DNA of 26,706 nucleotides, from NCBI GenBank assembly GCA_016287035.1, contig JAEEVI010000018.1, positions 1 to 26,706 on the forward strand. The letters are read 5' to 3'. The DNA is from Bacillota bacterium. GTDB lineage: Bacteria; Bacillota; Clostridia; Peptostreptococcales; Anaerovoracaceae. Below the pieces are notes generated by a model. It saw only the letters and a program-made list of their open reading frames with translations, was not told the origin of the DNA and ran no database searches. Shown piece by piece: positions 13,708 through 15,213 of the stretch. The stretch's first letter is position 1. Each line of letters starts with the position of its first letter. Both the position numbers and the translations under genes were made by a program.

Positions 13708-14853
13708 TTACGCGGCCTTTTCAGCGAGGCAGCCGTGCGCGCGGAGGATCTCCTCCAGAGCGCTTACGAATCTGTCGGCGTTAGTCTCCGTGGCGTTGTA
13801 ACCCATGAGGCCAACGCGGAGGATCTTGCCCGCCATCGGTCCGAGACCCGCGCTGATGCTTATGCTGTAGTTGTCCCTGAGCTCCGAGATTATCTCCTTG
13901 TCGGTTATGCCTTCGGGAACGACGATGCAGTTGAGATCCGGAAGTCTGAACTCGGGAGCCACGAACAGTTCGAGGCCGATCCTTTCAAGCCCTTCCACGA
14001 GGCGCCTGTGCGCGGCCATATGCCTTGCGAAGCAGTTCTCCTTGCCCTCCTCGAGTATGTTGTACAGCGCCTGGTAAAGGCCGTACATCATGCTAATAGG
14101 CGCGGTGTGATGGTAGACCCTCGTCGCTCCCCTCCAGTAGTGGGTGAGCATGTTCATGTCGAGGTACCAGTTGGGCACCTTTGTCTTTCTGTTCTCTATG
14201 ACCTGCATCGCGGCGTCGCTGAAGGTTATCGGAGCGGCTCCCGGGGGGCAGGAAAGGCACTTCTGCGTGCCGCTGTAGGCGATGTCGGCGTGCCACTTGT
14301 CGACCTCTACGGGTATTCCGCCGAGGCTCGTGACGCAGTCGACGAGATAGAGGCTTCCGGCCTCGTGGACCATCCTGCCTATCTCCTCGACGGGGTTGCA
14401 TACGCCTGTCGAAGTCTCCGCGTGGACTATAGCCACGAGCTTGTAGTGATCCTGCTCGAGCAGCTCCTTTACCCTCGCCGGAACGACTGGCGTTCCCCAC
14501 TCGAACTCTTCCTTTGTGACCACCGCGCCGAGCCTGCTCGCTACGTCTTCCATGCGGTTGCCGAAAACGCCGTTCTCGAGCACGAGGACCTTGTCGCCCT
14601 TCTCTATGACGTTGACGAACGCGGCTTCCATTCCGATCGAACCTGTTCCGGACAGGGGGACCGTCACCTTGTTCTCGGTGCCGAAGAGCTCGCGCAGACC
14701 GTGCTTTATCTCCGCCATGATCTTGAGGAAATACGGATCGAGATGTCCGAGCACGTTGCGGGACATGGCGTGATACGTGTTGGGAGCCACGCCCGAGGGG
14801 CCGGCGCCGAGCAGAAGCAGGTTCTGAATGTCGTCAAGAAGATTCTGTTTCAT
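13708..14853 (-). CDS. Alanine/serine-glyoxylate aminotransferase, class V (AGXT/PucG-like)
   Basis: LLLGAGPS, SGTGSIGMEAA, HAETSTG, DCVTS, SGTQKCLSCPPG (PLP Lys), YHHTAP and RVGLMG. Start reset to ATG 14853 because the longer track ORF runs through the riboswitch. Confidence 0.9.
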   Translation of the reverse strand: MKQNLLDDIQNLLLLGAGPSGVAPNTYHAMSRNVLGHLDPYFLKIMAEIKHGLRELFGTENKVTVPLSGTGSIGMEAAFVNVIEKGDKVLVLENGVFGNRMEDVASRLGAVVTKEEFEWGTPVVPARVKELLEQDHYKLVAIVHAETSTGVCNPVEEIGRMVHEAGSLYLVDCVTSLGGIPVEVDKWHADIAYSGTQKCLSCPPGAAPITFSDAAMQVIENRKTKVPNWYLDMNMLTHYWRGATRVYHHTAPISMMYGLYQALYNILEEGKENCFARHMAAHRRLVEGLERIGLELFVAPEFRLPDLNCIVVPEGITDKEIISELRDNYSISISAGLGPMAGKILRVGLMGYNATETNADRFVSALEEILRAHGCLAEKAA

Positions 14854-14925
14854 AATCAAATATTCCCTTTCCTTTTTCGGACGGTCTCCCGTCCTAAGCC
14901 ATTGCCAGCGGATCCGGTGCCCGAT

Positions 14926-14966
14926 AAATAAAAAAGTCTGTTCGTGCACATGCACGCGAACAGACT
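14926..14966 (-). terminator. Attenuator hairpin forming the expression platform of the glycine riboswitch
   Basis: AGTCTGTTCG (14935-14944) and CGAACAGACT (14957-14966) form the stem, followed by UUUUUUAUUU in the transcript, about 75 nt before the start codon. Confidence 0.8.
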
Positions 14967-14995
14967 GCCCACAAAAATGGTATTTATCTAAGCAG

Positions 14996-15163
14996 CTCTG
15001 TCCTTTTGCCTGAGAGATTCGCATCTGCGCTTGCCCCTTCGGCACCCGTTTTTCAGGGATTCTCCAGAGTTCCATCAGCCTGCAGTCCTGTTCCTTCGGG
15101 AACGCCTGAGAGTTTTACTCCTTCGGCAGGCCTTTCGGCCGTTTTCCTGCAGACATCTACTGG
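14996..15163 (-). ncRNA. Tandem (two-aptamer) glycine riboswitch with leader-linker kink-turn
   Basis: Transcript reads CCA-GUA-GAU-GUCUGCAGGAAAA...GCCGAAGGAGUAAAACUCUCAGG...GGACUGCAGGC-UGA-UGGAA-CUCUGGAGAA...GCCGAAGGGGCAA...AUCUCUCAGGCAAAAGGACAGAG. Both aptamer cores and the k-turn elements are present. Confidence 0.95.
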
Positions 15164-15184: not shown

Positions 15185-15213
15185 AATATACCGCACACTT
15201 GCGGCGTTTGCAA
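15185..15213 (-). promoter_or_regulatory. Sigma70-type promoter driving the riboswitch-aminotransferase transcript
   Basis: Minus strand TTGCAA-N17-TATATT, about 20 nt upstream of the riboswitch 5' end. Confidence 0.7.

Follow-up and report, generated by a model that had tools for sequence, protein, structure and literature searches.

Does glycine shut off transcription of an enzyme that itself makes glycine? This question is raised by the minus strand of the window (the whole 26,706-nucleotide stretch of DNA analysed here), which carries a complete unit of promoter, tandem glycine riboswitch, terminator and aminotransferase gene. We consider it fairly probable that this unit is a transcriptional glycine-OFF riboswitch on a glyoxylate-to-glycine enzyme of the AGT family; since the enzyme would make glycine from glyoxylate, the circuit would be one of end-product feedback. 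The host assembly is a MAG of 1.39 Mb in 225 contigs, and a genome scan of this 79.7% complete MAG found a single RF00504 locus, the window's own. The elements of the unit are as follows.

15185-15213, minus strand: sigma-70-like promoter, TTGCAA-17-TATATT
15161-15163, minus strand: P0 5' strand CCA, pairing with UGG at 15072-15074 in the inter-aptamer linker, from alignment with the RF03166 tandem model
15078-15154, minus strand: aptamer 1, variant form (RF00504, 50.4 bits), with P1 and P2 covarying across leaders
15090-15103, minus strand: extra hairpin GUUCC-CGAA-GGAAC in J3/1 of aptamer 1, from the leader alignment
14988-15077, minus strand: aptamer 2, canonical (RF00504, 65.7 bits)
15069-15065 with 15000-14996, minus strand: P1 of aptamer 2, CUCUG with CAGAG, from the leader alignment
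14992-15003, minus strand: anti-terminator 5' half GGACAGAGCUGC, made up of GGAC of J3/1, the P1 3' strand CAGAG and the flank CUGC
14958-14970, minus strand: anti-terminator 3' half (GG)GCAGUCUGUUC, sharing the first 8 nt of the terminator 5' arm
14926-14965, minus strand: intrinsic terminator with an 8-bp plus 4-bp stem and a GC bulge, then UUUUUUAUUU
14851-14874, minus strand: ribosome-binding site AAGGAAAGGGA and ATG (14853-14851), from the sequence and a reading frame check
13708-14853, minus strand: AGT-family class-V aminotransferase of 381 aa (PF00266)

The promoter boxes recur as TTGCAA/TATACT at equal distance in the leaders L001, L004 and L005. The aminotransferase gene is monocistronic, and the next genes, RidA and cupin, lie on the opposite strand in convergent orientation. 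A small hairpin, GGACGG-GAGA-CCGUCC, is also found at 14879-14894 (minus strand), between the terminator and the ribosome-binding site.

The aminotransferase belongs to class V (Pfam PF00266, E 2e-32). In a PDB search, its best solved relatives were the AGT of Nostoc (alr1004, 1vjo, 355 bits), the mouse and human AGTs (283-299 bits; human AGXT, 1h0c, 283 bits) and insect AGT/HKT, while Arabidopsis SGAT, PhnW and cysteine desulfurases scored far below the AGTs. No NCBIfam equivalog cut-off was reached. The homology to the Nostoc and human enzymes is full-length and the catalytic residues are shared; the window enzyme resembles the Nostoc enzyme in having SGTGS and a Phe, whereas human AGT has SGSGH and Trp108. 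Alignment showed that the equivalents of human Lys209, Asp183, Arg360, Tyr260 and Thr263 are conserved. Among the residues kept are the lysine for PLP (in YSGTQK), the aspartate that contacts the pyridine nitrogen (in LVDCV) and the arginine that binds the substrate carboxylate (in LRVGLMG), and the YHHT motif is kept as well. The original prediction had named an alanine/serine-glyoxylate aminotransferase, and AGT family membership, with AGTs as the closest solved relatives and the catalytic residues kept, agrees with that assignment. Sequence does not reveal the specificity of AGT-family members; the most likely reaction would be conversion of glyoxylate to glycine, a second glycine route alongside GlyA, which is present in the window genome and most relatives. 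This aminotransferase is the sole AGXT-family gene in four of the five genomes searched, and G001 has a paralogue (L203, 40% identity) with no serA neighbour.

Relatives of 70-76% identity were found in Clostridium sp. AM58-1XD, Allofournierella massiliensis, Lachnospiraceae, Oscillospiraceae and gut metagenomes. The riboswitch lies upstream of every such relative with enough upstream DNA except L234 (70%), and it is absent both there and at homologues of 68% identity or less. The closest copies of the riboswitch-aminotransferase cassette are in Oscillospiraceae and Lachnospiraceae, relatives of 72-76% are in other families of Clostridia, and a sample of 30 genera from the window's own family yielded no copy of the aminotransferase. 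Such a patchy distribution suggests that riboswitch and gene travel together as a unit by horizontal transfer. A Na:alanine symporter gene preceded by a glycine riboswitch of its own lies in divergent orientation to the cassette in Clostridium sp. AM58-1XD, and since each of the two is under a glycine riboswitch, uptake and aminotransferase appear to be co-repressed in this organism.

Homologues of 64-68% identity (L225, L226 and the P0046 locus) adjoin HpcH/C-C-lyase/DUF6986 or DHDPS-type aldolases together with IclR regulators, a gene context that fits glyoxylate as the substrate. This neighbourhood is itself a possible glyoxylate-producing catabolic module. [quoted passage not shown] We found glyXS-glyXL in all five cassette-bearing relatives, with no riboswitch on it within the fetched loci. 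GlyXL, GlyXS and the Na:alanine symporter were not found in the window genome, a MAG that is 79.7% complete. GlyXL was present in 23 of the 30 sampled confamilial genera and this aminotransferase in none, so the aminotransferase is not an obligate partner of GlyXL. Because GlyXL and GlyXS were not found in the window MAG and the pair is common, the link of the aminotransferase to the GlyXL-GlyXS pathway is plausible but unproven. Under this link the window enzyme would be the last step of the route; the likeness to the B. methanolicus switch is a glycine riboswitch on a step from glyoxylate to glycine, although the regulated genes differ. In the cassette-bearing Oscillospiraceae MAG G004, no match to SHMT (PF00464) was found, while glyXS-glyXL and the riboswitch-aminotransferase are both there; if the lack of SHMT is real, the glyoxylate route could be the sole source of glycine in this organism.

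The same gene neighbourhoods bear on an alternative which keeps the OFF switch but assigns the aminotransferase to catabolic disposal or assimilation of glyoxylate, with glycine as a product brake. In that case an aldolase, or the degradation of purines or hydroxyproline, would supply the glyoxylate, and such a role would suit the HpcH/C-C-lyase or DHDPS-type aldolases and IclR regulators beside the riboswitch-less homologues of 64-68%, as well as the presence of GlyA in the window genome, where GlyXL was not found (79.7% complete). However, the riboswitch-bearing clade has lost the aldolase/IclR context and is monocistronic, the cassette of one relative is partnered by an uptake gene that is itself glycine-repressed, and the cassette occurs in G004 without an SHMT match. 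We therefore think a catabolic role unlikely, while giving it some weight.

A place in serine metabolism was also weighed, in which an OFF switch would act on a phosphoserine or hydroxypyruvate transaminase and glycine, being convertible to serine, would repress serine synthesis. In line with such a role, phosphoserine transaminase activity has been proven for the AGXT-like SerC3 enzymes of Clostridia (PMC13759103), and published work places serA/serC under the control of glycine riboswitches (PMC3766115, PMC2211319). We sampled SerC3 by genomic context only, next to serA-DUF1015, and the two serA/DUF1015-linked proteins (L223 and L224) were only 29-30% identical to the window enzyme, with 132-143 bits against 355 bits for the Nostoc AGT. 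Identity of the window enzyme as a SerC3 phosphoserine transaminase was thus rejected. In addition, no serA is adjacent, and a canonical SerC above cut-off was present in the window genome and four relatives, which makes a serine role improbable. An enzyme that makes glycine from glyoxylate remains our preferred reading.

At the RNA level, both aptamers exceeded the RF00504 gathering score of 32 bits, aptamer 2 with E 8.4e-12 over 14988-15077 and aptamer 1 with E 1.1e-9 for a match at 15073-15159, bearing out the claim of a tandem glycine riboswitch. The tandem also aligned over its full length to RF03166, a model of tandem shape; its 69.2 bits are below the gathering score of 110, and membership of this glycine-GGAnGA variant was rejected. 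Matches to SCARNA4 and PhotoRC-I were set aside as chance, the latter being the extra hairpin on the opposite strand. Aptamer 2 matches the conserved core in full (GGAGA in J1/2, CCGAAGG and CUCAGGCAAAAGGAC). Aptamer 1 is off consensus, with GGAAAA in J1/2, a UAAAA loop instead of P3b, and a 14-nt hairpin in place of the A-rich J3/1. From this sequence the tandem is predicted to bind glycine, and aptamer 1, with its GGAAAA and J3/1 hairpin, may perhaps be unable to do so.

In a tandem alignment of nine leaders, 94% of cells were paired and 13 pairs were changed on both sides, and no shuffle or slid register approached this pairing support; the covariation check proposed in the original prediction thus backed the tandem fold. 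P0, the leader-linker helix of the K-turn region, was 100% paired in the nine leaders, and one of its pairs had changed at both positions. The extra hairpin, in which three of five pairs were changed on both sides across the same leaders, is present in all aminotransferase leaders, and the tandem transporter leaders L116 and L129 have a short J3/1 without it. Among orthologous leaders aptamer 2 is near-invariant and aptamer 1 more variable. A conserved aptamer 2 and a degenerate aptamer 1 have been reported for OFF-type tandems (Torgerson et al. PMC7161355; Crum et al. PMC6944388), and since the asymmetry in these leaders follows this pattern, it was counted for the OFF reading.

The original prediction had described an 11-bp anti-terminator with one G-U pair and a bulge, and this could be read directly off the sequence: GGACAGAGCUGC (15003-14992) pairs with GCAGUCUGUUC (14968-14958) over 11 bp, one of them G-U, and a single G is bulged. 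RNAduplex extended the pairing to -18.0 to -19.1 kcal/mol, a value equalled by 0.2-0.7% of shuffled partners. As had been claimed, the 3' segment holds the terminator 5' arm, the overlap being the first 8 nt of the arm (14965-14958), and the 5' segment contains the P1 3' strand CAGAG, so that the anti-terminator excludes P1. The stem of the terminator occupies 14965-14936, with a hairpin energy of -15 to -19 kcal/mol, and U6 comes directly after it at 14935-14930. The terminator lies about 30 nt downstream of aptamer 2, 29 nt past P1, and is separate from P1. A simple terminator scanner passed over this terminator because of its bulge and loop.

When the transcript ending at the terminator 5' arm was folded, the MFE structure lacked P1 and had CAGAG from aptamer 2 paired into the arm. 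The full-length unconstrained MFE structure (-47.2 kcal/mol) kept the anti-terminator, and enforcing the five P1 pairs gave the complete 12-pair terminator at -44.3 kcal/mol. The gap of about 3 kcal/mol could plausibly be covered by ligand binding and tertiary contacts. The window thus combines an independent terminator with an anti-terminator exclusive with P1, as expected of a transcriptional-OFF platform. The OFF logic is supported in silico, since the constrained folds flip as predicted and the terminator is separate from P1, and these models suggest that in vivo the ligand would lower expression.

In the mechanism we propose, the promoter at about 15213-15185 would start the leader, which would fold into the tandem glycine aptamer. 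At low glycine, the short P1 of aptamer 2 would not be locked, and GGGCAGUCUGUUC could pair first with the flank 3' of P1 (CUGC/GCAG), next invade P1 and then enter the GGAC junction, the four flank bases CUGC just outside P1 serving as a toehold for strand invasion. The anti-terminator would then occupy the terminator 5' arm and permit read-through into the aminotransferase gene. With glycine bound, chiefly by the conserved aptamer 2, P1 would be held shut, the 5' arm would be freed, and the terminator would form and halt transcription at the U tract. In public reads, the best runs held at most 18% of sampled words, in short Logan contigs from bovine and sheep gut, and most matches were conserved aptamer cores of other organisms. 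One 151-nt contig from an RNA library spans 14835-14985 across the terminator, possibly as DNA carry-over.

Terminator and anti-terminator were then compared in 14 distinct orthologous leaders. The terminator lies 29-62 nt beyond aptamer 2 in all 14, and overlaps P1 in none. Pairing of the P1 3' strand with the arm did better than shuffles (fraction <=0.03) in nine leaders, was marginal in three (L144, L006 and L230/L232) and was unsupported in two (L227 and L005, shuffle fraction 0.20-0.27), so the anti-terminator is weak or unclear in two to five of the 14. The original prediction was to fall if this pairing proved not to be conserved; the nine supported leaders speak for conservation, although the marginal and unsupported ones show that it is imperfect. 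Arm sequences differ, being GCAGUCUGUUC in the window, GCACCUGUUC in L233 and GAGCAGCUCU in most others, and all are complementary to the same aptamer strand. Flank and arm co-vary as CUGC/GCAG in the window and L145, GUGC/GCAC in L233 and CCGC/GCGG in L144, with CUGU/GCAG in L001, L231, L004 and L002; L003 and L006 have a CCGC flank opposite GCAG, giving a C-A mismatch. In L003/L160 and L005/L230/L232, the partner of the P1 3' strand in the ligand-free MFE structure is a segment adjoining the terminator, with no overlap between segment and terminator, and in several relatives the MFE structure retains the terminator with or without P1. The L004 leader (1076-1500) has two terminator-like hairpins, and we counted the duplex of the distal one (-15.6 kcal/mol, shuffle fraction 0.000) rather than the upstream hairpin picked automatically. 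L004 also has about 290 extra nt between its distal terminator and the start codon, which leaves room for a second promoter or another element.

These comparisons also weigh on the opposite reading, an ON switch by which glycine would induce the aminotransferase and be degraded to glyoxylate. Most tandem glycine riboswitches are indeed of the ON type (PMC7161355). The gcvT-type ON tandem of Bacillus subtilis resembles the window in its two aptamers, P0/K-turn linker and intrinsic terminator platform, but its terminator arm overlaps the P1 3' strand, so that P1 formation prevents termination; because the window terminator is separate from P1, the logic is inverted relative to it. True ON leaders of relatives have this overlapping design: in the Allofournierella gcvT leader L190 and the leader L192 of a glycine-exporter-type gene (PF03458, Gly_transporter), the terminator 5' arm (AGAGCGCGC... 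and AGAGUACACG..., respectively) starts inside the P1 3' strand. None of the 14 orthologous leaders shows an ON design. In the window, the terminator is complete 29 nt past P1, no pairing ties termination to an open P1, and enforcing P1 yields the terminator. Moreover, the AGT reaction strongly favours glycine formation, which is opposite to the direction that an ON switch would serve. All these results make induction by glycine very unlikely. Least probable of all is a decaying or constitutive attenuator with a non-functional aptamer 1 and a glycine-independent terminator, which could account for the off-consensus aptamer 1 and for the terminators kept with or without P1 in the MFE folds of several relatives, but which we largely discount because aptamer 2 is near-invariant across leaders of proteins only 70-76% identical and the helices of aptamer 1, extra hairpin included, covary, pointing to purifying selection on the whole tandem.

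The preferred reading of a glycine-OFF switch was compared with other glycine riboswitches. Tandem OFF glycine riboswitches are established for Na:alanine (AGCS) symporters (PMC7161355, PMC11477304). Those of Vibrio cholerae (VC1422), Streptococcus pyogenes and Fusobacterium nucleatum share with the window the aptamer family, a better conserved aptamer 2, control by terminator versus anti-terminator and the predicted glycine-repressed logic, but they control a transporter, whereas the window cargo is a cytoplasmic aminotransferase. About 60 transporter leaders (among L024-L142) were collected from related Clostridia by a 17-nt aptamer-2 word. Among the Na:alanine symporter leaders of Oscillospiraceae and their relatives, the type-2 singlet accompanied by a ghost aptamer predominates. 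The transporter leaders have a terminator 5' arm, UUUUCCGGAGUUGC, whose sequence complements the P1 5' strand (AACUCUGGAGAA), which on sequence implies a two-step relay, unlike the aminotransferase leaders; the window arm is instead complementary to the P1 3' strand, and its tandem is complete. By this comparison, the aminotransferase leader joins a complete tandem to a predicted OFF-type platform that has a build of its own. In two Lachnospiraceae MAGs (L031 and L049), a glycine riboswitch was also seen upstream of glyA (SHMT, 415 aa), about 245 nt from the aptamer-2 word, with the transporter-type platform UUUUCCGGAGCCGC...CGGUUCUUUUUUUU. Since this platform is of the transporter type, glyA looks glycine-repressed there.

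Reported cargos of glycine riboswitches include grd, gcv, glyA, abgB, transporters, sdaA and serA/serC in a regulon survey (PMC3766115), further serC and glcB (PMC2211319), and glyXS-glyXL (PMC13759103). No report of an AGT-family cargo was found in the searchable literature on glycine riboswitches. The original prediction had not recognised this context as characterised, which agrees with the search for an AGT cargo, but it overstated the novelty, as OFF tandems and biosynthetic cargos were already known. Riboswitch class and kind of regulation are both familiar, and what the window adds to them is a new cargo together with a new build of the platform.

A broader proposal, which we put forward only tentatively, is that the cassette is a dedicated, glycine-feedback last step of the glyoxylate route in gut Clostridia that moves horizontally, with an anti-terminator of simple toehold type and, in aptamer 1, a fourth helix that is new and covaries, and that it offers a clean natural model of tandem OFF switching. 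As a compact, full-tandem OFF leader with an unusual aptamer 1, it would be of use in working out what part each of the two aptamers plays. The cassette may likewise assist in naming the transaminase partner of the GlyXL-GlyXS pathway. A review has stated that glycine riboswitches do not regulate essential-metabolite production (PMC11477304). If confirmed, the finding would add a transaminase step of glycine supply to the catabolic and uptake functions already placed under glycine riboswitches, and would provide regulatory evidence that an AGT-family enzyme makes glycine in anaerobic gut bacteria.
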